A stretch of DNA of 61,005 nt, the filler included, from Nitrospinae bacterium RIFCSPLOWO2_12_FULL_45_22 (GTDB lineage Bacteria > 2-12-FULL-45-22), in NCBI GenBank assembly GCA_001803565.1. It is 5 parts of 5 records of this genome, joined end to end, with 100 filler letters (N's around TTAATTAATTAA, not from the genome) between each part and the next. Parts side by side here need not be neighbours in the genome. Positions count along the whole stretch, not along the records: positions 12,619 to 23,926 come from MHDQ01000312.1; 4 more parts are not named here. One strand, given 5' to 3'. The notes below the pieces were generated by a model. That model was not told where the DNA came from, ran no database searches, and worked only from the letters and a program-made list of their open reading frames with translations. Positions 12,519 to 55,374 of this stretch are shown here, piece by piece (position 1 is the stretch's first letter; the number at the start of each line of letters is the position of its first letter). The position numbers and the translations under genes were made by a program.

Positions 12519-12618
12519 NNNNNNNNNNNNNNNNNNNNNNNNNNNNNNNNNNNNNNNNNNNNTTAATTAATTAANNNNNNNNNNNNNNNNNNNNNNNNNN
12601 NNNNNNNNNNNNNNNNNN
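12519..12618. other. Artificial contig spacer (N44-TTAATTAATTAA-N44)
   Basis: The identical 100-nt spacer with all-frame stops occurs four times. Confidence 0.98.
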
Positions 12619-12734
12619 GTTTGAATTTATCATTAATTTTATCACCCAGGAACAATTTGTAAACTTTTTGCTTGATAGCATAGAAAACCATAAACTTCAA
12701 TAAGTATATACTAAAACACTCAATTAAGTTTTCC

Positions 12735-12763
12735 TTGACATAACTGATTTTTCTTCTTAGGAT
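12735..12763 (+). promoter_or_regulatory. Putative sigma70 promoter for the flavin oxidoreductase
   Basis: TTGACA-17 nt-TAGGAT. Confidence 0.5.
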
Positions 12764-12965
12764 GAATTTCCTCTTTTTCAGGCTATCAAGCGATTTATTG
12801 ATGTAGGGACAGGGATCGCTTTGCCCTGTCCGCCGTGTCGGCACAGGCAGGCATGTCCGAATAACCCCGGACAGTACTCAGAAGTCATAAGATAAGAATC
12901 ATTATTCTGGATTCTGACTCCTGACTACTGCATTCTTAATTCTAACTTATCAGGAGGGATTAGCT

Positions 12966-14153
12966 ATGGGAGCCACTTTGGAGAAACTTTTTGAACCCAT
13001 AAAGATAAACAAGCTAGAGGTAAAAAACCGGGTTTGTTATGCCCCGACCGGAAAGTCTCACTTCACGGAAGATGGCTATATGACAGATCAGGCTATCTGT
13101 TATTATGTGGCCCGGGCAAAGGGTGGTACGGGCTTGCTCATAGTGGAGGTTTGTCTTCCCCATACCAAATATGCCCGGCCGTTACATAGGTTATTAGGTT
13201 GCTGGGATGATTCCCAATTGGCAGGACTCCGGAACCTGGCTGAGGCCATCCATGCCGCTGGGGCCAAGGCGGTTGTGCAAGAAAGCCTGGGCTTTGGCAG
13301 TCAGGCCATGTTCCCTATCAGGGGTGAAGTAGTAGCACCATCCGATGTTCCCACCTCTATCCAGAAAGGGGGTGCACCCAGGGGGCTGCAATATATGGAA
13401 GGTGTAACCGGAACAACGCCCCGGCCCCTAACCAAAGTGGAAATAGTTGAGTTAGAAGATGCCTTTGCCTTGGGCGCAGAGAGGTTAATGAAGGCAGGGT
13501 TTGATGGTTTAGAAATCCACGGCTGCCATGGATATCTCATCGCAGAATTTCTTTCGCCTTACAGCAATAAACGACAGGATGAGTATGGAGGTAGTTTAGA
13601 AAACAGGTTGAGGTTAGCCCTGAATCTGTTAAAGAAGAGCCGGGAAAAGGTAGGGGCTGATTTTGTTATCGGGTTCCGGATGAGTGGTGATGAGCATATA
13701 GAAGGGGGATATGATTTGGAAGAGGGGCAAAAGATCGCCCGCGAGATCGAAAAGGCCGGCGCAGACTATATCCATATCTCTTCGGGTCGCTATGAGGTTA
13801 TGAACCTGATGCTCCCGGATAAAGAAGGGACTATGCTCCAGGAGGCCAGGGCCATAAAAGAAGCCGTTAAATTACCGGTTATATGCCCCAATATCCATGA
13901 TCCCCTGACCGGTGAAAAGGCCCTCCAGGAAGGGATGGCCGATATGGTCTCGCTATCCCGCGGATTGATTGCCGATCCGGCCTGGGCTAATAAAGCCAGG
14001 GAGGGAAGGATTAAAGAGATAAATAGGTGTATCCTTTGTAATACCTGTCTCAAGACCCTATTTTCCGGGTTCACTATCCGCTGTGCCGTTAATCCCGAGG
14101 TCGGCTGGGAAAGGTTCATCCCAGAATACCATCCGCCTATCCGGGGCAGGTAA
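12966..14153 (+). CDS. NADH:flavin oxidoreductase, Old Yellow Enzyme / 2,4-dienoyl-CoA reductase-like TIM barrel with C-terminal Fe-S motif
   Basis: KNR...AP, RAKGG.GL, EIHGCHGYL..FLSP.SN.R.DEYGGS and CILCNTC...C.VNP motifs. Confidence 0.9.
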   Translation: MGATLEKLFEPIKINKLEVKNRVCYAPTGKSHFTEDGYMTDQAICYYVARAKGGTGLLIVEVCLPHTKYARPLHRLLGCWDDSQLAGLRNLAEAIHAAGAKAVVQESLGFGSQAMFPIRGEVVAPSDVPTSIQKGGAPRGLQYMEGVTGTTPRPLTKVEIVELEDAFALGAERLMKAGFDGLEIHGCHGYLIAEFLSPYSNKRQDEYGGSLENRLRLALNLLKKSREKVGADFVIGFRMSGDEHIEGGYDLEEGQKIAREIEKAGADYIHISSGRYEVMNLMLPDKEGTMLQEARAIKEAVKLPVICPNIHDPLTGEKALQEGMADMVSLSRGLIADPAWANKAREGRIKEINRCILCNTCLKTLFSGFTIRCAVNPEVGWERFIPEYHPPIRGR

Positions 14154-14188
14154 ATTAAAAACCACGGCTACCATTTCCATTAAATGGT

Positions 14189-14217
14189 TTGATTCAGAAG
14201 TAAAATTTTGTTATGCT
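14189..14217 (+). promoter_or_regulatory. Putative sigma70 promoter of the coo cluster
   Basis: TTGATT-17 nt-TATGCT with a TG extended -10. Confidence 0.45.
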
Positions 14218-14275
14218 TAATAGCACATACTTGAGCTAAAAAGTATTGTTTCTTATTGCACCACAGGTGTCTTTG

Positions 14276-15061
14276 ATGAGAATAGCTATTTCCGGTAAAG
14301 GTGGAGTGGGAAAGACTACCCTGGCTGCCTGGATAGCCCGCTTGCTGGTCAAAGAAGGCCAGAATGTCCTCGCCATAGATGCCGATCCTACCAATAACCT
14401 GGCCCCTACCTTAGGCTTCCCGCCAGAGCTATACGAAAATATTGTTCCTCTGAAAGAGAGGAGCAACCTTATAGAAGAAAGGGTGGGAGCGCAGGGGGGG
14501 TTCTTTCGACTCAACCCCAAGGTGGATGATCTATTGCCTCAACTAGCAGTAGAATATCAAGGAATCAAGCTAATAGTTATGGGCACCATCAAAGAGGCCG
14601 GAGGTGGTTGTGCCTGTCCAGAGAATACTTTATTAAGGGCTTTTATCGGTCATCTCTTGTTAGAAAAAGGAGAATCGGTAATCGTAGATATGGAAGCGGG
14701 CCTGGAGCATCTGGGTCGAAGGACGGTTGAGGCAGTAGATGCCTTGCTCGTAGTTGTAGAGCCCAGTCAGAATAGCATAATGGTCGCCAAAAAGATAAAA
14801 GAGCTGGCTGAGGGTTTGGGCCTTAAAAAATCCTTTTTCGTGGCCAATAAGATCAATTCAGCCGAAGAAGAGCTCTTTATTCGAGCCCGATTGCCTGAGG
14901 AACATCTGCTAGGTTATTTGCCCTATTCTGAAAGTTTAAGGCGGCAGGCCCTTTCTGAATTATCTGAATCCTCTGTATTGACTAGGGATGCCAGGCTGGA
15001 GAGCGAGCTTAAGAACCTCTTGCGCCAAGTCAGGCTCAGAGGGATAACCCCAGGTAATTAA
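14276..15061 (+). CDS. cooC: CO dehydrogenase nickel-insertion ATPase CooC
   Basis: MRIAISGKGGVGKTT, DADP, GGGCAC Ni-binding motif and DMEAGLEHLGR; next to cooF/cooS. Start moved to the ATG at 14276. Confidence 0.93.
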   Translation: MRIAISGKGGVGKTTLAAWIARLLVKEGQNVLAIDADPTNNLAPTLGFPPELYENIVPLKERSNLIEERVGAQGGFFRLNPKVDDLLPQLAVEYQGIKLIVMGTIKEAGGGCACPENTLLRAFIGHLLLEKGESVIVDMEAGLEHLGRRTVEAVDALLVVVEPSQNSIMVAKKIKELAEGLGLKKSFFVANKINSAEEELFIRARLPEEHLLGYLPYSESLRRQALSELSESSVLTRDARLESELKNLLRQVRLRGITPGN

Positions 15062-15241
15062 GATAACTTAATAATAGCGTAGGAAAGTCTATTCTGGACT
15101 CAGATAGACACAGATTATCAGGATTTTAATAAAGTGGGCAATAAGCCGTGAGGAGAGAGAAGTTAACGGCTTACTGCTTACTCCTTACTGCTCACCAAAA
15201 TATCTGTCTGAATCTGTGAAAATCTGTGTCCTAATTAATTG

Positions 15242-15351
15242 CCACTGAAAAATGGGGTGTCGAGCAAGCTCGACCACTACATGCATCATGAAAACAGTAT
15301 TGCTAGAGCAATCGGTAGTGGTAAAGCTTGCTTTGCTGGTTTTTTCAGTGG
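15242..15351. mobile_element. MITE-like element between cooC and cooF
   Basis: Ends ccactgaaaaa and tttttcagtgg, with ctaattaatt just outside on both sides; internal GTAG-type REP pair. Confidence 0.55.
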
Positions 15352-15388
15352 GAACTAATTAATTTAAGAATAAAGGAGGAGTCCAGCA

Positions 15389-15892
15389 TTGAAAGATGTA
15401 TTCATTGAATTAGAAAAGTGCCAGGGTTGTAAATCGTGTGAGTTGGCCTGTGCCGTTGAGCATTCTAAGGCAAAAACCCTCTTCGCTGCTATAAGCGAAA
15501 CACCTTTACCCCGGAAAAGGGTCTTTGTCGAATATGTTGACGGTAAACGATTTCCAATTCAGTGTCGCCATTGCGAAGAGGCGCCCTGTGTAGCTATATG
15601 TGTCTCAGGGGCTTTGAGTCGGGACGAATCGCGGGCCCTAGTTACCCATTCCAAAGAAAGGTGTATTGGCTGTGGGATGTGTGTAATGGTATGCCCTTTT
15701 GGCGTTATTACCAGGGAGATGGGCAGTAAAGTGATTACAAAATGCGACCGGTGTAAGGATAGGGATGAGCCGGCTTGTGTTGAGTCCTGCCCGGTAGGGG
15801 CCCTGGTTTTTACTGATATGGAAGAGCTAGAGAAGACCAGGCGAAGAGGGGTCATAAAAAACGTACTAATTGGTGGCTTCAAGGCCAGCTAA
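15389..15892 (+). CDS. cooF: CooF-like 4x[4Fe-4S] electron transfer protein
   Basis: CQGCKSCELAC, CRHCEEAPCVAIC, CIGCGMCVMVCP and KCDRC...PACVESCP; SD aaggaggag before a TTG start; precedes cooS. Confidence 0.9.
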   Translation: MKDVFIELEKCQGCKSCELACAVEHSKAKTLFAAISETPLPRKRVFVEYVDGKRFPIQCRHCEEAPCVAICVSGALSRDESRALVTHSKERCIGCGMCVMVCPFGVITREMGSKVITKCDRCKDRDEPACVESCPVGALVFTDMEELEKTRRRGVIKNVLIGGFKAS

Positions 15893-16052
15893 TATGCGGG
15901 ACGGGGTTATTAGGTGATTAGGTTATTGGATAATCTAAATAACCAATGACCCAATAACGTAATGACCCAATAACGAAATTCTCTATCTACTCTGTGGTTA
16001 GACCGGCAGAGGCATTTCTGTAAAAGACGTAGTTTTCAGTGGAGGGACAAAG

Positions 16053-17966
16053 ATGACGGAGAGTGAGAAGAAGTCTAGTGATTTAGCATCAAGATATATG
16101 CTGGATAAAGCCAAGGCCCTTGGCCTGGAGACCATCTGGGATCATTATGAAGCTATGTTGCCCCAGTGCGGTTTTGGTGAATTAGGTGTCTGTTGCCGGA
16201 TGTGCCTGGAAGGCCCCTGTCGGATAGACCCCTTTGGCGAAGGAGCAAAGGTAGGGGTCTGTGGTGCTACGGCCGATGCTATTGTTGCCCGGAACCTGGA
16301 TCGGGCCATTGCCGCTGGTACTGCCTCCCATTCTGATCATGCCCGCCATGTAGCCCTCACGCTGCTGGCCGTAGCGGAAGGTAAGGCCCCAGATTACAAG
16401 ATAACCGATGTAGGAAAGTTGAAGCAGGTAGCTAGCCGGATAGGTATCAAGCTAGATAAAAAGGATAATCTTACCCTGGCTAAAGAGGTAGCGCTTGCTG
16501 CCCTGGAAGATTTTTCTCGACAAGATGTCAATATACCCTTGACCTGGGTTGCGACCACCATGACCCCGGGACGCATCGAGGTATTTTCTAAATTGGGTAT
16601 TGTCCCGCACAATATAGATGCCAATGTCTCAGAGATCATGCACCGCACCAGCCGCGGTAATGATGCCGACCCGGTCAATTTATTACTCGGAGGAATCAAA
16701 TGTGCCCTATGCGACTATGCTGGTTGCCATATCGCCACGGACCTGTGCGATATCCTCTTCGGTACCCCTAAGCCGGTAGTCTCCCAGGCCAACCTGGGGA
16801 TATTGAAAAAGGATGCAGTGAACATTGCTGTCCATGGCCATAATCCCCTCCTCTCGGATATAGTGGTAGATGTCGCAGGTCAACTGAGAGACGAAGCCAT
16901 CAAGGCCGGGGCCAAGGAAGGGATAAATATGGTAGGGATCTGTTGCACTGGTAATGAAGTCCTGATGCGCAAGGGGGTAGGTATGGCTACCCACTCGGTA
17001 TCGCAAGAATTAGTGGTCATGACCGGCGCCTTAGATGCTATAGTAGTTGATATTCAGTGCATTATGCCCTCCCTGAGCTCTTTGTGTGACTGTTTCCATA
17101 CCAAATTAATAACCACCATGCCTATTGCAAAGATACCCGGGGCTACCCATATAGAATTCCATGATGATAAAGCGGTAGAATCGGCCAAGAAGATCATTCG
17201 GTTAGCTATCGAGGCTTATAAGCACCGGGACCCCAAAAAAGTGGATATCCCTGATGTAAAACAGACGGCTATGGCTGGCTTTAGCCTCGAGGCTATTGTA
17301 GAAGCCCTGAGTAAGGTAGATGCCAAAGACCCCTTAAAACCTTTGATAGATAACATTGTCAATGGTAATATCCAGGGTATTGCCCTGTTTGCCGGCTGTA
17401 ACAATGTAAAAATAGTACAGGACCAGAACTATCTGGCTATGGTAAAGGAATTGGCTAAGAATAACGTTTTAATCCTGGCAACGGGCTGTGGCGCTGGGGC
17501 CTTTGGCCGGCATGGCTTTCTAACTTCAGAGGCCACAGAAGAATATGCTGGCCCGGGACTTAAGGCCGTCCTTACTGCTATTGGTCAGGCAGTAGGCTTG
17601 AATGCCCCATTGCCCCTGGTATTACATATGGGCTCCTGTGTAGACAATACCCGGGCAGCGGATGCAGCCGTTGCGGTAGCTAATAAGCTGGGGGTGGATA
17701 TATCACAACTGCCCGTGGTAGCATCCGCGCCGGAGGCCATGGCAGAAAAGGCCATTGCCATTGGTACCTGGGCTGTGGCTGCGGGATTACCTACCCATGT
17801 AGGTGTGGTACCACCGGTCCTGGGTGGACCATTAGTCACGGAAGTCTTAACTAAAACGGCCAAGGACCTTTTGGGTGGTTATTTCATTGTGGAGACCGAT
17901 CCGGTGGCGGCAGCGGGGAAGCTATTGGATGCTATCAGAGAGCGCCGCAAGGGATTGGGTATCTGA
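16053..17966 (+). CDS. cooS: Anaerobic Ni,Fe carbon monoxide dehydrogenase catalytic subunit
   Basis: D/B-cluster motif CGFG..GVCCRMC..GPC...C, His tunnel HSDHARH, C-cluster ligands HGHN, CCTG, DIQC, AGCN, TGCG and GSCVD, and catalytic Lys (EKA). Confidence 0.97.
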   Translation: MTESEKKSSDLASRYMLDKAKALGLETIWDHYEAMLPQCGFGELGVCCRMCLEGPCRIDPFGEGAKVGVCGATADAIVARNLDRAIAAGTASHSDHARHVALTLLAVAEGKAPDYKITDVGKLKQVASRIGIKLDKKDNLTLAKEVALAALEDFSRQDVNIPLTWVATTMTPGRIEVFSKLGIVPHNIDANVSEIMHRTSRGNDADPVNLLLGGIKCALCDYAGCHIATDLCDILFGTPKPVVSQANLGILKKDAVNIAVHGHNPLLSDIVVDVAGQLRDEAIKAGAKEGINMVGICCTGNEVLMRKGVGMATHSVSQELVVMTGALDAIVVDIQCIMPSLSSLCDCFHTKLITTMPIAKIPGATHIEFHDDKAVESAKKIIRLAIEAYKHRDPKKVDIPDVKQTAMAGFSLEAIVEALSKVDAKDPLKPLIDNIVNGNIQGIALFAGCNNVKIVQDQNYLAMVKELAKNNVLILATGCGAGAFGRHGFLTSEATEEYAGPGLKAVLTAIGQAVGLNAPLPLVLHMGSCVDNTRAADAAVAVANKLGVDISQLPVVASAPEAMAEKAIAIGTWAVAAGLPTHVGVVPPVLGGPLVTEVLTKTAKDLLGGYFIVETDPVAAAGKLLDAIRERRKGLGI

Positions 17967-18113
17967 ATATTCGGGGGAGAGAAAATTACTTTCTCGGCCC
18001 AGCACCGACTTGCGATTGTTGGGTTACATGCAGGAAAAAGGGGCCAGTAAGAAAAATTCTTATCCAGCATGGGCGGAGTAGGATCAGCCGGAGGAGGTGA
18101 AAGCTTTTTAATT

Positions 18114-18572
18114 ATGGAAAGACTAGAAGCAATAATAAAAAATTATGGATTTGAAAAAAGAGCCCTTATACCTATTCTCCAGGATATTCAGACAGAGTAT
18201 GGCTGGCTCTCTGAGGACTTATTAAAGCAAGTGGCCCAGAGGTTGAAAATTCCCTCAATGGACGTGTTCAGTGTTGTAACATTTTATAAGTCTTTCAGAT
18301 TGAAGCCTATAGGTAAGTATTTCATGACTGTCTGTCTTGGCACTGCATGTCATGTAAGGGAAGCACCCGAAGTATTGGGTGAGATTCAGAGAAAGATCGG
18401 CATAAAAAACGGTGAGACTACCGCTGATAATCTCTTTACCCTGGAAACGGTTAACTGTGTTGGGGCATGTGCCTTAGGCCCTATTGTTATGGTGAATAAT
18501 GAATACCACGGTTTGATGAATAAAAACAAGATAGACCAACTCATCAAGAGGCTCTATGCAAAGGATCTATAA
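18114..18572 (+). CDS. NuoE/HydC/BfuC-like [2Fe-2S] subunit
   Basis: LIPILQDIQ..YGWL, V.TFY, VCLGTACHV and NCVGAC motifs. Likely start is the ATG at 18114 (track start 18069). Confidence 0.92.
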   Translation: MERLEAIIKNYGFEKRALIPILQDIQTEYGWLSEDLLKQVAQRLKIPSMDVFSVVTFYKSFRLKPIGKYFMTVCLGTACHVREAPEVLGEIQRKIGIKNGETTADNLFTLETVNCVGACALGPIVMVNNEYHGLMNKNKIDQLIKRLYAKDL

Positions 18573-20403
18573 TCTGCAGGACTTAGATGATTTAAGGGCA
18601 GAAATAAAAAAAAGGCCTCAGGGCAAAGCTATAACTATTGCTGTTTGCAATGGTACGGGTTGCCAGGCGTATGGGTGCGGGAAGGTTACTCAGGCATTTA
18701 TGGATGAAGTCACAAAACATGGACTGGATGTGGAGATCAAGCCAACGGGTTGCCACGGCTTCTGCCAATCGGGTCCCATTACAGTTATACACCCGGACGG
18801 CATCTTCTATCAGAGGATAAAACCTGAAGATGTAGGGGAGATCATTTCAGAAACTATCATGAGAAATCGTATCATACAACGTCTCCTCTATGAGGACCCT
18901 TTAACCCTTGAGAAAATCACCTATGAGAAAGATGTACCCTTTTATAAAAAGCAGATGCGAATAATCTTTGGGAATAACGGATTTATCAATCCCAGAAACA
19001 TAGATGACTATATCGCCATTGGTGGCTATTCGGCCATATCTAAGGTACTCAAAGAGATGGAGCCGGAAGAAGTGATAGGGGAAATAAAAAACTCTGGCTT
19101 GCGGGGAAGAGGAGGTGCTGGTTTTCCTACAGGAGTAAAATGGGAGGTTTGCCGGAACGCAGAAGAGGATCAAAAATACCTTATATGCAATTCTGATGAG
19201 GGGGACCCCGGGGCATATATGGACCGTAGTCTTTTAGAAGGGAATCCCCATTCCGTGATAGAGGGAATGCTCATAGGCGCTTATACCATTGGGGCACCGA
19301 AGGGCTTTATCTATGTCCGTCATGAATATCCCCTTGCCGTAAAGAATATTTCCTTTGCTATTTCACAAGCTAGCGAATATGGGTTATTGGGAAAAGACAT
19401 CCTTGGCCCTTCTTTTAGTTTTGATATCGAGATTATCAGGGGTGCCGGGGCCTTTATCTGTGGTGAGGAGACTTCACTGATAGCCTCTATTGAAGGGGGT
19501 AGGGGGGAGCCGCGGCCCAGACCTCCATATCCTGCCCAAAAAGGTCTCTGGGGTAAACCGACCAATATCAATAATGTCGAAACCTGGGCCAATATTCCGC
19601 TTATCATAGATCGGGGAGCCGATTGGTATACCCAAATGGGTACTGAAAAAAGTAAAGGGACCAAGATATTTTCCCTGGTAGGTAAAATCAACAATACCGG
19701 TCTGATTGAGGTGCCTATGGGCATTAGCTTGCGAGAGGTCATCTACGAGATTGGGGGTGGTATTCCCGGGGGTAAGAAATTCAAGGCTATCCAGACTGGA
19801 GGTCCTTCTGGTGGCTGTATCCCGGCAGCCATGCTCGATCTTCCCATAGATTATGAGGGCTTAACGGCCGCGGGTTCCATTATGGGTTCCGGCGGTTTAG
19901 TCGTCATGGATGAAGATACCTGTATGGTTGACGTAGCAAAATATTTTCTCAAATTTACTGTCGATGAATCCTGCGGCCTATGCACTCCCTGCCGGGAAGG
20001 GATCAAGCAGATGCTTCATCTCCTTACCCGAATAACCGAAGGAAAGGGTAAGGAGGGAGATATTGAGCTGCTAGAGGAGCTATGTCAGGCGATAAAGGAT
20101 GCCTCCCTGTGCGGCTTGGGGGGGACAGCCCCTAACCCGGTCCTCTCAACACTCCGCTATTTCCCGGAGGAATACCAGGCCCATATCAAAGACAAGAGAT
20201 GCCCAGCGAAGGTATGCCGCCCATTAATCCGCTATCAGATAGATGCTGAGAAATGTGTTATCTGTGGCCTATGTATAGAGAGTTGTCCAGAAGGGGCTAT
20301 TGCAAGCGAAGCAGGCGAGTCCCCCACTATAAATCTCGATAAATGTATCAAATGTGGTATATGCCTTGATACCTGCCCCTCTGAAGCTATTATAGTGCAA
20401 TGA
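18556..20403 (+). CDS. NuoF/HydB/BfuB-like FMN/NAD-binding subunit, long form with N-terminal 2Fe-2S and C-terminal 2x[4Fe-4S] domains
   Basis: C.GTGC...GCHGFC, GLRGRGGAGFPTG, DEGDPGAYMDRS, GGPSGG, ESCGLCTPCREG, H..DKRCPAKVC and two CxxCxxCxxxCP motifs. Confidence 0.93.
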   Translation: MQRIYNLQDLDDLRAEIKKRPQGKAITIAVCNGTGCQAYGCGKVTQAFMDEVTKHGLDVEIKPTGCHGFCQSGPITVIHPDGIFYQRIKPEDVGEIISETIMRNRIIQRLLYEDPLTLEKITYEKDVPFYKKQMRIIFGNNGFINPRNIDDYIAIGGYSAISKVLKEMEPEEVIGEIKNSGLRGRGGAGFPTGVKWEVCRNAEEDQKYLICNSDEGDPGAYMDRSLLEGNPHSVIEGMLIGAYTIGAPKGFIYVRHEYPLAVKNISFAISQASEYGLLGKDILGPSFSFDIEIIRGAGAFICGEETSLIASIEGGRGEPRPRPPYPAQKGLWGKPTNINNVETWANIPLIIDRGADWYTQMGTEKSKGTKIFSLVGKINNTGLIEVPMGISLREVIYEIGGGIPGGKKFKAIQTGGPSGGCIPAAMLDLPIDYEGLTAAGSIMGSGGLVVMDEDTCMVDVAKYFLKFTVDESCGLCTPCREGIKQMLHLLTRITEGKGKEGDIELLEELCQAIKDASLCGLGGTAPNPVLSTLRYFPEEYQAHIKDKRCPAKVCRPLIRYQIDAEKCVICGLCIESCPEGAIASEAGESPTINLDKCIKCGICLDTCPSEAIIVQ

Positions 20404-20556
20404 TTATTGATAACCGCAGAGACGCAAAGGACGCAGAGATATGTAGGTCGTAAGGAGTGAGGAGTTAGTAGTTAACTCCTCACTGCCCACTCCTTACTGA
20501 ACTTTGCGCCTTTGCGGTGCATAATTTTTTCGAGGAGAGAATAAACCATTATAAAA

Positions 20557-21309
20557 TTGATTGTTAATAATCAAGAGATCGAAGCAAAGGAAGATAGTAC
20601 TCTCTTGCAAGCTGCTTCTGCCATGGGTATTGTCATCCCTACCCTATGCTTTCATGAAGCATTGGGGCCTCATGGTAGTTGTCGGGTATGTCTGGTAGAG
20701 ATAGTAAACGGTGCCCGGCCGGGACTGGTGGCCTCTTGCACCTATCCGGTCGAAGAAGGATTAGTCGTAGAGACCAATAATACTAAAGTTCTAAAAACCA
20801 GAAGGATAATGGTTGAACTCCTATTAGCCCGCTGTCCTGACTCAACAAAGATTCGGGGACTGGCTAACGATTTAGGCATTGCTGAACCCCGGTTTGATAA
20901 AGAAAATGAGAGTTGTATCTTATGTGGCTTATGTGTACGGGTTTGTCGAGAGATCGGCATAAACTCGGTGGGGTTCATTCAACGGGGGACCAATAGAGAG
21001 GTCACTACCCCCTTCCAGAAACCTTCAGAGGTCTGCTTGGGTTGCCAGGCCTGTGCATTCCTCTGCCCCACGGGTGCGATAAAGTTTGAAGATGTAGCCG
21101 AGGAAAGAAAAGTAGAAAAATGGAAAACATCCATTAAACTCCAGCGATGTTCTTCCTGCAGCCGGCCCTTCTTCCCTGAGCCATTGCAGCTTTATTTAAA
21201 AGAAAAGGAGTTATTAGTACCAGAAAATATAGGACTATGTGAAGTATGCCGCCGCAAATCCCTCGGCTCCAGACTGGCCAGCATCCTTAGCCGAAAATCA
21301 ACGGTATAG
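20557..21309 (+). CDS. Short NuoG-N/HydA-N/BfuA-like Fe-S subunit without a catalytic domain (start may be ATT at 20548)
   Basis: PTLC...GSCRVC...ASC [2Fe-2S] motif, CILCGLCVRVC and CLGCQACAFLCP, plus a C-terminal CSSC...CEVC. No H-cluster or Mo-bisPGD domain. Confidence 0.88.
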   Translation: MIVNNQEIEAKEDSTLLQAASAMGIVIPTLCFHEALGPHGSCRVCLVEIVNGARPGLVASCTYPVEEGLVVETNNTKVLKTRRIMVELLLARCPDSTKIRGLANDLGIAEPRFDKENESCILCGLCVRVCREIGINSVGFIQRGTNREVTTPFQKPSEVCLGCQACAFLCPTGAIKFEDVAEERKVEKWKTSIKLQRCSSCSRPFFPEPLQLYLKEKELLVPENIGLCEVCRRKSLGSRLASILSRKSTV

Positions 21310-21409
21310 ACTTGTGAATTGAAATAAGAGGTGCTGACCCCAAAAAATTGGAGCTGGTTGTACTGTGAAATCTATGATTCCATTAGAAAAGGTTCACTGA
21401 ATATTTACC

Positions 21410-21531
21410 GTCACAGTTCAGCCCTATCGAAAATGAATGTCATTCTGACCGAAGGGAGGAATCTTTATTTACCTCCGGTCTCGGAAAGATTTCTCGCTGC
21501 GCTCGAAATGACAAAGAACCTGAACTGGTAC
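21410..21531. mobile_element. GTAAC-ended MITE (IS66-like ends), copy A
   Basis: Ends gtcacagttcag and ctgaactggtac, flanked by the 8-bp direct repeat tatttacc. Near-identical to the inverted copy at 57173-57295. Confidence 0.85.
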
Positions 21532-21586
21532 TATTTACCGAACTGATAATTACTTTTGGCTTGCTATAAGGGATACCATAACGGTT

Positions 21587-22111
21587 ATGGGAAAAGGGCT
21601 TATCTTAGTCTTTACTGGTGATGGTAAGGGAAAGACCACAGCGGCTCTGGGTATGGCCCTGAGGGCTACGGGGCACGGTCTTAGAGTTTTAGTGGTACAG
21701 TTTATTAAAGGTAGCCGACAATATGGCGAGTTAATAGCAGCCCAAGGATTACCATTATTAGAGATAGTGCCTATGGGCAAGGGCTTTATCAATTTGAGGG
21801 CAAAAGAACCCTTACCAGAAGATAAAGAACTAGCCCAGAAGGCCTGGTCTTTTTGCCAGGAAAAGGTTGGCACAGGCAAATACGACCTGATTATCCTGGA
21901 CGAGATCAGCTATCTGGTAAACTGCCACCTGTTGCCCCTGGAAGAGGTATTAGCTCTCTTACGGAATAAACCACCCAATCTCCATCTGGTCCTTACTGGT
22001 AGGCAGATGCCCCAGGCTATAATAGAAGTAGCTGATCTAGTTACTGAGATGAAAAAGATAAAACATCCCTACGACCAAGGCATTGCCGCCCAACCTGGCA
22101 TAGAATATTAA
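21587..22111 (+). CDS. cobO: Cob(I)yrinic acid a,c-diamide adenosyltransferase (CobA/CobO/BtuR)
   Basis: TGDGKGKTTAA.G.ALRA.G.G, QFIKG, ILDEI, LVLTGR and ADLVTEM...KHP motifs. Confidence 0.93.
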   Translation: MGKGLILVFTGDGKGKTTAALGMALRATGHGLRVLVVQFIKGSRQYGELIAAQGLPLLEIVPMGKGFINLRAKEPLPEDKELAQKAWSFCQEKVGTGKYDLIILDEISYLVNCHLLPLEEVLALLRNKPPNLHLVLTGRQMPQAIIEVADLVTEMKKIKHPYDQGIAAQPGIEY

Positions 22112-22301
22112 GGATAACGAGGGTTAGAAAAACAAAAATACGCTCATCCTGAGCTTTTTCGAAGGATTGGTTGTAACTATAGTGAAAAATATCCACAATA
22201 TTATGCATAACATCCCACTTTGTAGGGGTAACTGAAATAGGGCATTTTTTAACCGTATCTGAAGGCGTAGTTATGAGAATATCAAAGGTAGGTGGAGTTC
22301 A

Positions 22302-23471
22302 ATGAGACAAGCTTTCATTATTATGCAAATTGGTAATCCCAACTTGGATATAGTTTGTAAAGAGTCTATCGTCCCTGCACTACAGTCGTGCGCCCTTGAA
22401 CCAAAGCGTGTTGATAAACATAATGAGGGTGGTTTGTTAAAAAGTGAAATAGTTGGATTTATAAAATCGTCAGATATTATTGTTGCCGATCTTACCAATG
22501 AAAGGCCTAATTGTTACCTTGAGGTAGGATATGTTATGGGTCTAGACAAATTACGAAATTTAATTCTAACTGCACGAGAAGACCATAATCAGGATAGCCC
22601 AAATTATAAAAAGGGAGGCCCTAAGATTCATTTTGATCTAAGTGGCTATGATATCTTATTTTGGGAGCCAAACAGCCTTAATAAATTTAAAGAAGAACTT
22701 GAAAAGCGTGTAAGGCACCGGCTAGAAACTTTAGAACTTCGTATGCCTACTTCGGTTTCTCCTTGGGATGAAGAATGGATTTCCCAACAGCAAGATTTAG
22801 CTTTCTCGGGGCTAGAAAGATCCGGTAAATCAGGATTCATGGAAATTCGAATGACTCTACCTGATTCGAAGATTAGTATCGCACACGAAGAACTGCTTCG
22901 CATCGCTGAACAAGCACAAATTTCTACATCCGGTTGGCCCCTTGGAGTTGTTGTTAATAGCGAAGAATATTGTCCAAAATCAACGACAGGTGGTATTGTT
23001 GCTGAAATAGATTCTGGAGGTGGAAGGAGTTATGATTATTGGACTATTCGAAGAGACGGTACATTTTATTTGCTGAAAAGCTTGTTTGAGGATGGGAGGA
23101 AACAAGGATATATCTTTTACGATATAAGGATAGCTCGGATAACAGAAGCTTTGCTTTACGCTGTTCGTTTTTATTCAGGTTTTAAGGTACCTCCTGATTC
23201 TCGCATTTTAATCAGAATACGACATGGGGGACTTAAAGACCGGGTTCTCGGTACTTCGAGAGTAGAAAGAGTCCCCGATTACAACCGTAATTGTAAAGAT
23301 GATGAAGTATGTACTGAGGTTGAAACAACTTTTAAGAAAATAGAATCAGATCTAGTGGATCTCGTCCAAAGGTTCACACAGGAACTTTTTGTAATATTTA
23401 ATTTTTTTAAAGTCAACAGAAAGGAACTGGAGGATATAGTCAACAATTTCATGGCAGGAAGAGTTACATAA
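22302..23471 (+). CDS. Two-domain protein: N-terminal nucleoside 2-deoxyribosyltransferase/TIR-like domain plus an uncharacterised C-terminal domain; candidate defence effector
   Basis: AFIIM..., IIVADLTNERPNCYLEVGY and HFDL motifs; AT-richer than its neighbours; flanked by integron-core-like sites. Confidence 0.7.
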   Translation: MRQAFIIMQIGNPNLDIVCKESIVPALQSCALEPKRVDKHNEGGLLKSEIVGFIKSSDIIVADLTNERPNCYLEVGYVMGLDKLRNLILTAREDHNQDSPNYKKGGPKIHFDLSGYDILFWEPNSLNKFKEELEKRVRHRLETLELRMPTSVSPWDEEWISQQQDLAFSGLERSGKSGFMEIRMTLPDSKISIAHEELLRIAEQAQISTSGWPLGVVVNSEEYCPKSTTGGIVAEIDSGGGRSYDYWTIRRDGTFYLLKSLFEDGRKQGYIFYDIRIARITEALLYAVRFYSGFKVPPDSRILIRIRHGGLKDRVLGTSRVERVPDYNRNCKDDEVCTEVETTFKKIESDLVDLVQRFTQELFVIFNFFKVNRKELEDIVNNFMAGRVT

Positions 23472-23486
23472 TGTATTTGTGCCATC

Positions 23487-23567
23487 AGATAACAGCATGT
23501 TTGCAGTTTGCTTCGCTTCCCCAAACGCTTTTCACTTCGCAAAGCCCGGGAACCCTAACCGTTATTG
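23487..23567 (+). other. attC-like integron recombination site (degenerate or chimeric)
   Basis: AGATAAC...GTTATTG just after the 22302 gene stop. The inner arms are only partly complementary (tttgc/gcaaa). Confidence 0.5.
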
Positions 23568-23622
23568 TTCCTGGATCAGGAGGGCAGTTCAACAAGCTTA
23601 TAGGATAAGGAGGGGAACGAGA

Positions 23623-23828
23623 ATGAATCCGCTTTTGCAGCGTATTTCTGTTGATCCAAATGTATGCTTCGGCAAACTCTGCATTCCCGGCACCGAATAT
23701 GGGTATTTCGGTTCCTTGATTTTTTATCCAATAGGATGAGCATTGGGGAAATTCTCGCAGAATATCCTCAACTGACTAAGGAAGATATTCAAGGTGCTAT
23801 AGCACATGGCGGGGGAAGGAGGTACTAA
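23623..23828 (+). pseudogene. DUF433-family antitoxin-like gene, frameshifted
   Basis: MNPLLQRISVDPNVCFGKLCIPGT continues in the -1 frame as RIWVFRFLDFLSNRMSIGEILAEYPQLTKEDIQGAIAH. One base appears to be missing at ggcaccgaata (about 23689-23699). Confidence 0.8.
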
Positions 23829-23830
23829 TT

Positions 23831-23926
23831 ATGAAGGCTATTCTTCAAAAGCAGATAGATGAGATGACAGAGGATGAGCTTAAAGAAGTCCTTCGAAGGG
23901 ATTATCTAAGAAGGCTTACTCGTTAC
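23831..23926 (+). CDS. Small hypothetical protein, truncated by the contig end
   Basis: SD aggaggt, then MKAILQKQIDEMTEDELKEVLRRDYLRRLTRY... open up to the spacer. Confidence 0.55.
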
Positions 23927-24026
23927 NNNNNNNNNNNNNNNNNNNNNNNNNNNNNNNNNNNNNNNNNNNNTTAATTAATTAANNNNNNNNNNNNNNNNNN
24001 NNNNNNNNNNNNNNNNNNNNNNNNNN
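23927..24026. other. Artificial contig spacer
   Basis: N44-TTAATTAATTAA-N44. Confidence 0.98.
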
Positions 24027-24040
24027 TTTTTGCCGAAAAA

Positions 24041-24850
24041 TTGGCTATCCCACAACGGAGAAAGGTCTTTATCAAACCCAACATGGTATCTCATGAAGAC
24101 TACCCCACTACTACTCACCCTGATACCCTGGATGCTGTGCTGGAATATGTCTCCCGTTCTTTGCGGCACGAAGTAGTTGTGGGTGATGCTGCGGCAGTGG
24201 ACCTGCCTGATCCTGGGCAGGCCATACTGAATCATCCACTCAGAAAAGTCTGTAAGACCCATGGAGTTCCTATGCTAGACCTCTACCAGGAAAGGCAATT
24301 ATATCGCGAGAGCCCCCGGGGTTACCCCATAAAACTGTCAGCTATCCCCGTAGAATCGGATTTTGTTATTTCTTTACCGGTATTAAAAGTCCATTTTATC
24401 TGCCAGATGACCGGTGCTCTCAAAAATCAGTATGGTTATTTGGCTAAAGGCGAGCGGCTGATGATGCACTATGATCCCAATTTCCCTGAAGAGATCAGGG
24501 AAGGGTTCCAGGCTATGGCAGCGGCAGACGGTATAACTGGGACGTTAGTGAAGAAAGATTTGGACCAGGGTATTGCTGAGGTGAATGCCCTGGCTATGCC
24601 CCATCTCTTTATTATTGATGCTATAGAGACCCTGATAGAGGCCAATGAGCAGCGTCATGGTGGCATCAGACAACCGCTGGGGCAGATGTTTGCCGGGACT
24701 GATCCGGTAGCATTAGACTGTTATGGCTTGAGCCTCTTACAAAAGTTAGAACCTAAATTGTCTCATAAAACGCCACTAGACATAAGATATATCAAACTGG
24801 CTATAGACTATGGGTTAGGCTCGCCGGACTATCAACTTGTTTGGCTTTAA
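24041..24850 (+). CDS. DUF362 domain protein (probably 5'-truncated at the contig start)
   Basis: VFIKPN, TTHP, ISLPVLKVH...MTGALKN..G and DPVALD motifs. Confidence 0.85.
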   Translation: MAIPQRRKVFIKPNMVSHEDYPTTTHPDTLDAVLEYVSRSLRHEVVVGDAAAVDLPDPGQAILNHPLRKVCKTHGVPMLDLYQERQLYRESPRGYPIKLSAIPVESDFVISLPVLKVHFICQMTGALKNQYGYLAKGERLMMHYDPNFPEEIREGFQAMAAADGITGTLVKKDLDQGIAEVNALAMPHLFIIDAIETLIEANEQRHGGIRQPLGQMFAGTDPVALDCYGLSLLQKLEPKLSHKTPLDIRYIKLAIDYGLGSPDYQLVWL

Positions 24851-24863
24851 CCTGTTTATTACC

Positions 24864-25697
24864 ATGGCTTACCAATTAATTGCAGATACGACCTTTATCG
24901 CCTTTGATGTAGAAACTACTGGATTATACCCGGTAGCAGGGAGAGTGGTAGAGCTCTCGGGGGTAAAATTCACGATTGATAGCGGAGTAATAGCTACTTT
25001 TGATGAGCTTATCAATCCCCAATCTCCTATCCCCCCTGAGGTTGTTCGTATCCATGGTATAACAGATGCGATGGTAGCGGAGCGGCCAACGGCTGACCTG
25101 ATTGTCCCGAGATTTTTGGAATTCATTGGTGGGCCAGAGATGGTGTTAATATCCCATAATGCCTCTTTTGATGTAGGCTTTGTCGGGGTAGATATTGCCC
25201 GCCAGGGCATAGCGGACCCAGGTAACCTGATCTTAGATACCCTGGTCCTTGCTCGACACTGCCTACCTTCTCTTGGCAGTTATAAGTTAGAAAACCTGGT
25301 GCGTTATTTTAATATACCCAGCCAAAATTATCACCGGGCCCTGGCAGATAGCTTTTCCGTTAAGGAAATATTTTTGTCCTTGCTCCAACGCTATCCCAAA
25401 ATAAAAACCATCGAGCAAGTACAGCAAAAGACTTATACCTTCCACTTTTCTGATGCGGCGACTTTCCAGGTACAATTACCCCCGGGCTTTGAAGACCTTG
25501 CCTGGGCTATGGAAAACAGTCTCCCAGTCGTTATGGTCTATAAAGGTGGATCAAAAGGCCCAGAACCCCGTATCATTACCCCTTTAGCTGCTATCCAGCG
25601 CAACGGTATTATTTATGTAGCGGCCTATTGCCACCTTGACAAGGTAGAGAAATCCTTTAGATTAGACCGCATAAAAGAATTTCGGATAAAAAAATAG
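24864..25697 (+). CDS. DEDDh 3'-5' exonuclease (DnaQ-like) fused to a C-terminal WYL domain
   Basis: FDVETTG, HNASFD and HRALAD; C-terminal Y...R.ITP...YVAAYCHL...KSFRLDRI. Likely start is the ATG at 24864. Confidence 0.88.
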   Translation: MAYQLIADTTFIAFDVETTGLYPVAGRVVELSGVKFTIDSGVIATFDELINPQSPIPPEVVRIHGITDAMVAERPTADLIVPRFLEFIGGPEMVLISHNASFDVGFVGVDIARQGIADPGNLILDTLVLARHCLPSLGSYKLENLVRYFNIPSQNYHRALADSFSVKEIFLSLLQRYPKIKTIEQVQQKTYTFHFSDAATFQVQLPPGFEDLAWAMENSLPVVMVYKGGSKGPEPRIITPLAAIQRNGIIYVAAYCHLDKVEKSFRLDRIKEFRIKK

Positions 25698-35276: not shown

Positions 35277-35376
35277 NNNNNNNNNNNNNNNNNNNNNNNN
35301 NNNNNNNNNNNNNNNNNNNNTTAATTAATTAANNNNNNNNNNNNNNNNNNNNNNNNNNNNNNNNNNNNNNNNNNNN
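35277..35376. other. Artificial contig spacer
   Basis: N44-TTAATTAATTAA-N44. Confidence 0.98.
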
Positions 35377-55274: not shown

Positions 55275-55374
55275 NNNNNNNNNNNNNNNNNNNNNNNNNN
55301 NNNNNNNNNNNNNNNNNNTTAATTAATTAANNNNNNNNNNNNNNNNNNNNNNNNNNNNNNNNNNNNNNNNNNNN
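55275..55374. other. Artificial contig spacer
   Basis: N44-TTAATTAATTAA-N44. Confidence 0.98.

Follow-up and report, generated by a model that had tools for sequence, protein, structure and literature searches.

A candidate electron-bifurcating carbon monoxide dehydrogenase of the Codh-Bfu type in a Nitrospinae metagenome-assembled genome

The stretch of DNA analysed here (the window; 61,005 nucleotides, filler included) comes from the metagenome-assembled genome (MAG) Nitrospinae bacterium RIFCSPLOWO2_12_FULL_45_22 (GCA_001803565.1). It carries six co-oriented genes on the + strand, in the order cooC-cooF-cooS-bfuC-bfuB-bfuA, in which a Ni,Fe carbon monoxide dehydrogenase (CODH) is encoded next to a three-subunit module of the Bfu type. 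With moderate confidence, we propose that the six genes encode one soluble multi-subunit bifurcating enzyme belonging to the predicted type Codh-Bfu (CodhABCSF); that the CODH and Bfu modules are physically coupled appears in itself likely. The first-pass annotation had already read the cluster as a candidate electron-bifurcating CODH, and each part of that reading open to computation was supported by the sequence comparisons described below. New here are the lineage outside Firmicutes, the gene order and the repeated assembly of such clusters from modules.

Enzymes of this type have previously been predicted in print, as the first-pass annotation had noted. “Codh-Bfu” was named in 2022 as an uncharacterised Type 2 Bfu enzyme with four sequences and its BfuB in clade 49; the published cases were described as occurring ‘only in Firmicutes’, and in them bfuB and bfuA flank the CODH genes (PMC9304861). 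“CodhABCSF” was proposed in 2025 in Sporomusa silvacetica, with CooF as a WorS homolog, and was said to be ‘yet to be purified’ (PMC12318220). Our full-text literature searches found bifurcating CODH only as these two predictions and in loose wording (PMC6203783), and they found no biochemical characterisation. The last of these, a ‘bifurcating carbon monoxide dehydrogenase’ of Clostridium ljungdahlii, was set aside because the phrase does not denote a characterised enzyme. Elsewhere, NuoEFG-like COGs have been noted in Wood-Ljungdahl contexts of CODH (PMC6344411), and such CODH neighbours have been lumped under NAD(P)/FAD oxidoreductases (PMC13056359). Compared by description with the Codh-Bfu/CodhABCSF systems of Acetohalobium arabaticum, Clostridium cellulovorans and S. 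silvacetica, the present cluster likewise encodes BfuABC together with CooS and CooF, has a short BfuA without the A3 and A5 clusters and has CO as the proposed third substrate. It differs in having the order cooCFS-bfuCBA, in lying outside Firmicutes and in having a BfuBC closely paralogous to a formate-type module encoded on another contig of the genome.

Subunits encoded by the cluster

Open reading frame (ORF) translations and family searches confirmed the six genes on one strand, where the first-pass annotation had placed them. The cooC gene (14276–15061, +; the ORF opens at TTG 14246) encodes a predicted Ni-insertion ATPase for CODH of the CbiA/MinD-type P-loop family, the translation of which contains a GKGGVGKTT P-loop and a Cys-x-Cys motif (CAC, in GGGCACPEN). 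It is followed by cooF (15389–15892, +), which has a strong ribosome-binding site (RBS) in front of its TTG start. CooF is a ferredoxin-like subunit with Fer4_11 and HydN-like matches and four Cys4 motifs, presumably for four [4Fe-4S] clusters, and its 16 Cys were invariant across six CooFs from CODH-bfu loci. It matched WorS (9mqx_E) over its full length with 95 bits, and also HycB4. CooF is the predicted wire from CooS to BfuA.

The catalytic subunit CooS (16053–17966, +) matched TIGR01702 with 755 bits against a cut-off of 478, and was the sole match to this family in the genome. Among solved structures, it was closest to CODH-II of Carboxydothermus hydrogenoformans (1su6, 860 bits) and CooS of Rhodospirillum rubrum (1jqk, 852 bits), and the cluster ligands were aligned. 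Relative to 1su6, it kept C39, C47, C48, C51, C56, C70, H261, C295, C333, C446, C476 and C526 at the positions that we take to be the D-, B- and C-cluster ligands, as well as K563, presumably the catalytic Lys, and H93, H96 and H99 of the presumed His run, position 102 of which is Leu. The description of CooS as intact, with all cluster ligands, the Lys and the His tunnel, therefore agreed with the alignment, apart from a His run retained at three of its four positions. The presence of CooF and CooC is a further likeness to the CODH-II and R. rubrum systems. In R. rubrum, CooF feeds an energy-converting hydrogenase, whereas the cluster described here has no hydrogenase and continues into bfuCBA.

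The first gene of the Bfu module, bfuC (18114–18572, +), encodes a NuoE/HydC-like protein with a predicted [2Fe-2S] C1 cluster. It matched PF01257 with 176 bits, overlaps bfuB by 17 nt and has the domain content by which BfuC is defined (PMC9304861). The ORF opens at 18069, but translation probably starts at ATG 18114, which is preceded by the RBS GGAGGAGG; from M16 onward, the product is 72% identical to a 152-aa paralog on another contig of the genome (C317).

The 615-aa, long NuoF/HydB-like BfuB (18556–20403, +) carries the features that set bifurcating subunits apart. Its domains (PF01512, PF10531, PF10589 and the PF00037/Fer4 family) agree with the definition of BfuB (PMC9304861). Its sites include those for flavin mononucleotide (FMN) and NAD(H), an N-terminal [2Fe-2S], a NuoF-type [4Fe-4S], a B2 site with His, three Cys and Thr, and a C-terminal 2x[4Fe-4S]. 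The motifs GDPGAYM, GGPSG, DTCMVD and H..DKRCPAKVC, the N-terminal thioredoxin-like 2Fe-2S domain and the C-terminal 4Fe-4S pair reported in the first-pass annotation were all found in the translation. The annotation had also held that such features distinguish BfuB/HydB from complex I NuoF, which is consistent with the best match to a solved structure being a subunit of a proven bifurcating enzyme, namely subunit B of the NiFe-HydABCSL (7t2r_B, 885 bits). The next solved matches were bifurcating FeFe-HydB, NfnB and WorB (9mqx_B, 741 bits), whereas the non-bifurcating complex I NuoF (2fug_1) and a formate dehydrogenase beta subunit reached only 425 and 419 bits, respectively. The NiFe-HydB kind has been placed mainly in clade 49 (PMC9304861), and NiFe-HydB is the best match of this BfuB among solved structures only.

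At the B2 site, H543, C549, C554 and C456 of BfuB align to H525, C531, C536 and C438 of 7t2r_B, and T494 replaces C476. This His is kept in 1550 of 1558 BfuB sequences and absent from non-bifurcating homologs, and the Thr variant occurs in about two-thirds of BfuB (PMC9304861, section 6); zinc has been reported at the B2 site of FeFe-HydABC, of NfnABC and of WorABCSL (PMC12318220). The cluster thus shares with NiFe-HydABCSL the B2-site His and Cys positions, and differs from it in having Thr at C476 as in the Zn-B2 enzymes, a BfuA without the C-terminal domain and A3 cluster, and no hydrogenase.

The last gene, bfuA (20557–21309, +), encodes a short, 250-aa NuoG-N-like connector with a [2Fe-2S] and 2x[4Fe-4S], the C-terminal part of which has a zinc-finger-like Cys4 motif followed by a tail; only the PF13510/PF00111 Fer2_4 and Fer4 families were found in it. 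A 2Fe-2S ferredoxin domain with a 4Fe-4S ferredoxin-type domain is the minimum set for a BfuA (PMC9304861). Translation may begin at ATT 20548 and not at TTG 20557, as ATT 20548 lies 8 nt after the RBS GAGGAGAG (region 20532–20559) and matches the register in which the closest homolog begins (MIKL). The closest database relatives, P0002 and P0003, were 72% and 64% identical, respectively. The domain search detected no H-cluster, molybdopterin or NADH-G_4Fe-4S_3 (PF10588) domain in BfuA, which bears out the earlier claim that this subunit lacks an H-cluster and a molybdopterin domain. FeFe- and Mo-type A subunits possess PF10588; its absence, together with a C-terminus that aligns with the Cys4 zinc finger of WorA, suggests a BfuA without the A3 (His-ligated) and A5 clusters.

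The likeness to WorA, a subunit of the tungsten aldehyde oxidoreductase WorABCSL of Acetomicrobium mobile (9mqx), extends over nearly the whole protein: residues 5–240 of BfuA align with the 247-aa WorA (9mqx_A) at an E value of 2e-49, two CxxC pairs included, and C198, C201, C228 and C231 were invariant in 16 sequences. The Cys4 motif is therefore predicted to be a zinc finger as in WorA. In WorA, the Cys4 binds zinc, and the zinc finger and C-terminal helix recruit WorS; the same has been proposed for CooF (PMC12318220). The two systems thus share a short BfuA with a Cys4 zinc finger and C-terminal tail, a four-cluster ferredoxin-like partner (CooF versus WorS) and a similar BfuB core. In contrast, the catalytic subunit here is a Ni,Fe CODH, where WorABCSL has a tungstopterin enzyme.

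Complex modelling of the BfuA and CooF pair, based on alignments of 16 BfuA and six CooF sequences, gave a score of 0.75 (median of three runs), compared with 0.01 for the best of three controls; of 157 solved complexes, 116 attained the mark used, as did 2 of 215 mismatched pairs. The runs agreed in at least 91% of contacts, with a partner pLDDT (predicted local distance difference test) of at least 80. The predicted interface comprises residues 129–134, 161–169 and 206–245 of BfuA and residues 46–57, 66–75 and 88–108 of CooF, and sets the ferredoxin lobe and zinc-finger tail of BfuA against the third Cys motif of CooF. This model supports the predicted binding of CooF to BfuA.

Gene neighbourhoods and subunit histories

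The adjacency of CooS to bfuCBA was found to recur in diverged lineages. A search with BfuA yielded 79 metagenome loci, excluding the cluster's own contig (L082); CooS was encoded within 9 kb of bfuCBA in six of the 79 (L087, L089, L097, L099, L102 and L110), and many of the remaining loci were too short for a decision. BfuA-like matches at E ≤ 1e-45 were present in 53 of 400 genomes. Neighbourhoods were examined in 27 genomes, a chosen subset consisting mostly of matches that reached the C-terminal region in a short frame, and CooS lay in the neighbourhood of the short BfuA in six of them (G021, G038, G045, G116, G188 and G213). At least four gene orders were distinguished. The order cooC-cooF-cooS-bfuCBA was found in this window only, and cooF-cooS-bfuCBA in L102, L110 and L178, the last with cooC downstream. 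L099, L177 and L191 have cooC-cooS-cooF-bfuCBA-acsB, with cooC on the opposite strand in L191, and L188, L189 and L190 have cooC-cooF-bfuCBA-cooS, followed by acsB in L189. Of the 12 other CODH-bfu loci, 8 have a CooC-like gene and four contain acsB (L099, L177, L189 and L191), with acsC in L099 and L177 and acsV in L099. These acs-linked loci share the six gene families and the zinc-finger type of BfuA with the present cluster, and differ in continuing into acsB and in having a CooS only 45%–47% identical to the one described here, the cluster of which stands alone.

Partners other than CODH are common in this modular family. The A subunits at the 80 loci of nearest BfuB in species genomes were of FeFe-hydrogenase, molybdopterin, HdrA-fused, polyferredoxin or short types. 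At the loci of full-length zinc-finger BfuA, the recognisable partners were mainly CODH and pyruvate-type 2-oxoacid oxidoreductases. The first-pass annotation had counted partnering of the module elsewhere against its reading, and related modules do indeed pair with Hdr, Fdh and Por; however, since such partnering is normal for the family, the pairing with CODH here is not weakened. As a separate observation, the short BfuA adjoins genes for pyruvate-type 2-oxoacid:ferredoxin oxidoreductases (predicted Por-Bfu) in L021, L083, L092, L100, L101, L192, L195 and L202–L204, and loci of this type were at least as common as the CODH-linked ones among the loci fetched. Furthermore, a conserved 525–527-aa protein with no NCBIfam family follows the short BfuA in 14 loci (L129, L138, L140, L148, L152, L158 and others) and may be an unrecognised Bfu partner.

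The histories of CooS and BfuB appeared to be incongruent. BfuB is 75% identical to its paralog on contig C317 of the same genome, and no BfuB from other genomes among the loci fetched was closer than 69%. In a tree of 122 BfuB rows, from which rows with fewer than 520 aligned residues were left out, the cluster BfuB and the C317 paralog were sisters with a support of 99, and the nine CODH-linked rows required at least six changes. A single origin of the CODH-linked BfuBs was rejected in a test with 46 rows: the constraint, for a group named after the first tree was seen, cost 717 log-likelihood units (approximately unbiased test, p-AU 1e-53). CooS, for its part, is 64% identical to the CooS of L089 and L102, the BfuBs of which are only 48%–50% identical to the present BfuB, and L110 has a BfuB that groups with those of L089 and L102 and a CooS that groups with acs-linked CooS. 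Because the identities of CooS and BfuB are incongruent and a single BfuB origin was rejected, the CODH-Bfu pairing would have been assembled repeatedly; the simplest reading of these comparisons is that the CODH module recombined repeatedly with different BfuBC cores. For BfuA, one clade of eight CODH-linked rows was not rejected: in a test on 60 rows, which excluded nine whose context is unknown, the constrained tree was the better one by 13.6 units (p-AU 0.77); since the signal in 250 residues is weak, this test does not show a clade. A tentative extension, which we regard as possible but somewhat less likely than not, is that CooS, CooF and a CODH-dedicated zinc-finger BfuA move as a unit, a cassette that plugs into an available BfuBC and that here captured a fresh duplicate of a formate-type BfuBC. 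The paralogous Bfu cluster on C317 (locus L163:64–7608) encodes bfuC (152 aa), bfuB (637 aa), a formate-dehydrogenase-like A subunit (871 aa), an NfnA-like protein (279 aa), a GltD-like protein (464 aa) and a ferredoxin (91 aa).

Of the 400 genomes compared, a single one (68% complete) belongs to the same order as the source genome, and the other 399 are related to it at the domain level only; thus, the lineage is probably not Bacillota.

Contig structure and genome context

The window consists of five contigs of one MAG (C311, C312, C313, C314 and C316) placed end to end, with N spacers at 12519–12618, 23927–24026, 35277–35376 and 55275–55374 marking the joins; genes on either side of a spacer are therefore not neighbours. 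The whole CODH-bfu cluster lies within one contig of 11,308 bases (12619–23926), so that its real flanks are limited to 1.6 kb upstream and 2.6 kb downstream. The junctions cooF-cooS, cooS-bfuC-bfuB and bfuB-bfuA were bridged by Logan contigs from four other public runs, indicating that the gene order is real and that the adjacency did not arise in assembly. In all, 20 DNA runs from 16 studies, with labels of groundwater, soil or sediment, contained half or more of the sampled words of the stretch.

Short repeats dispersed in the genome occupy four spacers of the contig (15062–15388, 15893–16052, 20404–20556 and 21310–21586). In the cooC-cooF spacer, dispersed repeats at 15142–15361 (direct repeat D1 and inverted repeat I4) gave 78 blastn hits on 58 contigs, self included, with up to 46-fold coverage from hits in the genome. 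The bfuB-bfuA spacer holds a palindromic repeat (20427–20513; palindrome 20450–20497), for which 11 hits were spread over 10 contigs. In the bfuA-cobA spacer, which gave 38 hits on 31 contigs when self hits are counted, a repeat of roughly 120 nt lies near 21410–21530. Read depth in the four public runs peaked at the cooC-cooF and bfuA-cobA spacers. These repeats account for the long spacers and tie the contig to the rest of the bin, and they neither show nor exclude co-transcription. A promoter scan returned 19 promoter-like sites compared with 23.3 in shuffles, and terminator-like sites numbered 16 compared with 13.1, an ordinary count; no operon boundaries were drawn from these scans. An Rfam search of the contig returned no match at E ≤ 0.1.

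Upstream of cooC, at a distance of 122 nt, lies a gene for an FMN oxidoreductase of the OYE family (12966–14153, +), and cobA (21587–22111) lies downstream of bfuA. Both were considered as parts of the system and rejected, as neither recurs in the other CODH-bfu loci. The end of the cluster at 22111 given in the first-pass annotation is accordingly too far, since it takes in cobA, which is not conserved beside such clusters. A gene for a 389-aa protein follows (22302–23471), in a stretch of low G+C (0.38); this protein matched no Pfam or NCBIfam family and had weak Atlas leads only (0.82–0.85), to clusters with TIR, SEFIR or DUF4062 domains. On the next contig, the product of 24837–25697 is a fusion of a WYL domain with an exonuclease domain of the DEDD type (RNase T/DnaQ-like).

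The source genome, which is 85% complete, totals 3.67 Mb over 321 contigs. It contains a complete complex I with its own NuoF on contig C263. Searches of this incomplete genome found neither an [FeFe] hydrogenase domain nor a [NiFe] large subunit that scored above the cut-off, and a role of the module as the HoxEFU diaphorase of a [NiFe] hydrogenase was rejected for this reason. No catalytic partner other than CODH is evident for the short BfuA on its contig. A further CODH-related cluster was observed on contig C157 (locus L162:786–9871). It encodes a divergent 842-aa CdhA-like protein, which scored 465 bits on TIGR00314 and so fell short of the cut-off (781), and a CdhC-like sequence split into frames of 317 and 126 aa. 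Genes for a CooC-like ATPase, a MoxR AAA ATPase and a protein resembling VWA/Mg-chelatase follow, and no gene for a corrinoid protein was observed in this cluster.

Proposed electron route, alternatives and implications

From these genes, we infer a single complex, its electron route, bifurcation, the use of NAD rather than NADP and the physiological direction. CooC would mature the Ni,Fe C-cluster of CooS, which would oxidise CO to CO2 and pass the electrons out via its B and D clusters to the four [4Fe-4S] clusters of CooF. CooF would dock on the C-terminal zinc finger, tail and ferredoxin-like lobe of BfuA, and BfuA would relay the electrons via two [4Fe-4S] and the [2Fe-2S] to the BfuBC core. 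There, the FMN and neighbouring clusters would transfer a hydride to NAD+, and would direct two low-potential electrons to ferredoxin via the C-terminal 2x[4Fe-4S] of BfuB. The net reaction would be 2 CO + 2 H2O + NAD+ + 2 Fd(ox) -> 2 CO2 + NADH + 2 Fd(red) + 3 H+, where Fd is ferredoxin. As a hypothetical benefit under trace CO, ferredoxin reduction would stay feasible where CO/CO2 is far less negative than the standard value of −520 mV (PMC9304861).

Several observations weigh against such an enzyme. Sequence features do not prove bifurcation, and the B2 site is of the Thr/Zn type, the role of which is unsettled. The energetic need for bifurcation rests on the hypothetical trace-CO argument, because CO at standard potentials can reduce ferredoxin as well as NAD+ even if no bifurcation takes place. 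CooS was encoded at none of the 80 nearest BfuB loci of species genomes (47%–67% identity), so that similarity of BfuB does not predict the partner, and the module is promiscuous, since related short BfuAs serve POR, Hdr-like and Fdh partners. Neither CooS nor BfuB was found in the 68%-complete genome of the same order. The result of the docking may reflect likeness or memory, because a like complex (WorA-WorS, 9mqx) has been solved. Moreover, the spacers are long (cooC-cooF 327 nt, cooF-cooS 160 nt, cooS-bfuC 102–147 nt and bfuB-bfuA 153 nt), and a terminator scan detected a weak hairpin after bfuB (20505–20521); for these reasons, any co-transcription of the genes is putative. No RNA run was listed as containing the stretch, and two runs labelled as RNA contained next to none of its words.

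One alternative is a non-bifurcating CO:NAD(P)+ oxidoreductase, in which the module would be a plain diaphorase, like HoxEFU or the beta and gamma subunits of formate dehydrogenase, with no obligatory ferredoxin. Direct reduction of NAD+ is possible with CO/CO2 (−520 mV; PMC9304861, Table 1), the NCBIfam names of the subunits are those of NuoE/HoxE, NuoF and HoxU, and some database relatives of the 250-aa BfuA are labelled as the diaphorase subunit of a bidirectional hydrogenase. Yet BfuB keeps the N-terminal 2Fe-2S, the C-terminal 2x[4Fe-4S] and the B2-site His, all of which are missing in plain diaphorases, and its score to a proven bifurcating subunit is far higher than those to NuoF and the formate dehydrogenase beta subunit; we therefore regard this alternative as unlikely. 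The cluster might also encode two separate enzymes side by side, with CooS-CooF reducing free ferredoxin and BfuCBA acting alone or with a partner elsewhere, for example as a ferredoxin:NAD+ link. This would fit the repeat-filled spacers, the weak hairpin after bfuB and nearest BfuB relatives that serve other partners, and the same doubt has been voiced by PMC9304861. It is rendered improbable by a BfuA that has no catalytic domain, by the adjacency of CooS and bfuCBA in at least four gene orders and with incongruent CooS and BfuB histories, by the predicted docking of CooF on BfuA, and by loci such as L188, in which cooF directly precedes bfuC and cooS directly follows bfuA.

The enzyme could, finally, work mainly in reverse, with electrons from NADH and reduced ferredoxin confurcated for the reduction of CO2 to CO for acetyl-CoA synthase. 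Such a role is suggested by the acs-linked CODH-bfu loci described above, by the occurrence of NuoEFG-like COGs in Wood-Ljungdahl contexts (PMC6344411) and by the CdhA-like and CdhC-like cluster on C157. However, the contig carries no acs gene (the first-pass annotation had noted that acsB is missing from the cluster), and searches of the genome, at 85% completeness, found neither a formate-tetrahydrofolate ligase nor a full AcsC. NADH and reduced ferredoxin have a mean potential well above −520 mV (potentials from PMC9304861), and the enzymes closest to CooS, CODH-II and that of R. rubrum, oxidise CO. Predominant operation in this direction thus seems quite improbable to us.

Should the proposed bifurcating CODH be borne out, the oxidation of CO would supply NADH and low-potential ferredoxin simultaneously and would allow the use of very low CO, as found in groundwater, soil and sediment, which are the labelled habitats of the public runs containing this cluster. 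About a dozen diverged natural versions, with four gene orders among them, emerge from the survey as candidates for expression and structural work, and the repeated recombination of a bifurcating core with a CO-oxidising module provides an evolutionary argument for their joint working. If the tentative cassette reading is true, one bifurcating core design would serve both formate and CO in a single cell. Codh-Bfu enzymes would then be polyphyletic chimeras that extend well beyond Firmicutes, some acting as stand-alone scavengers of trace CO and others lying inside acetyl-CoA synthase operons.

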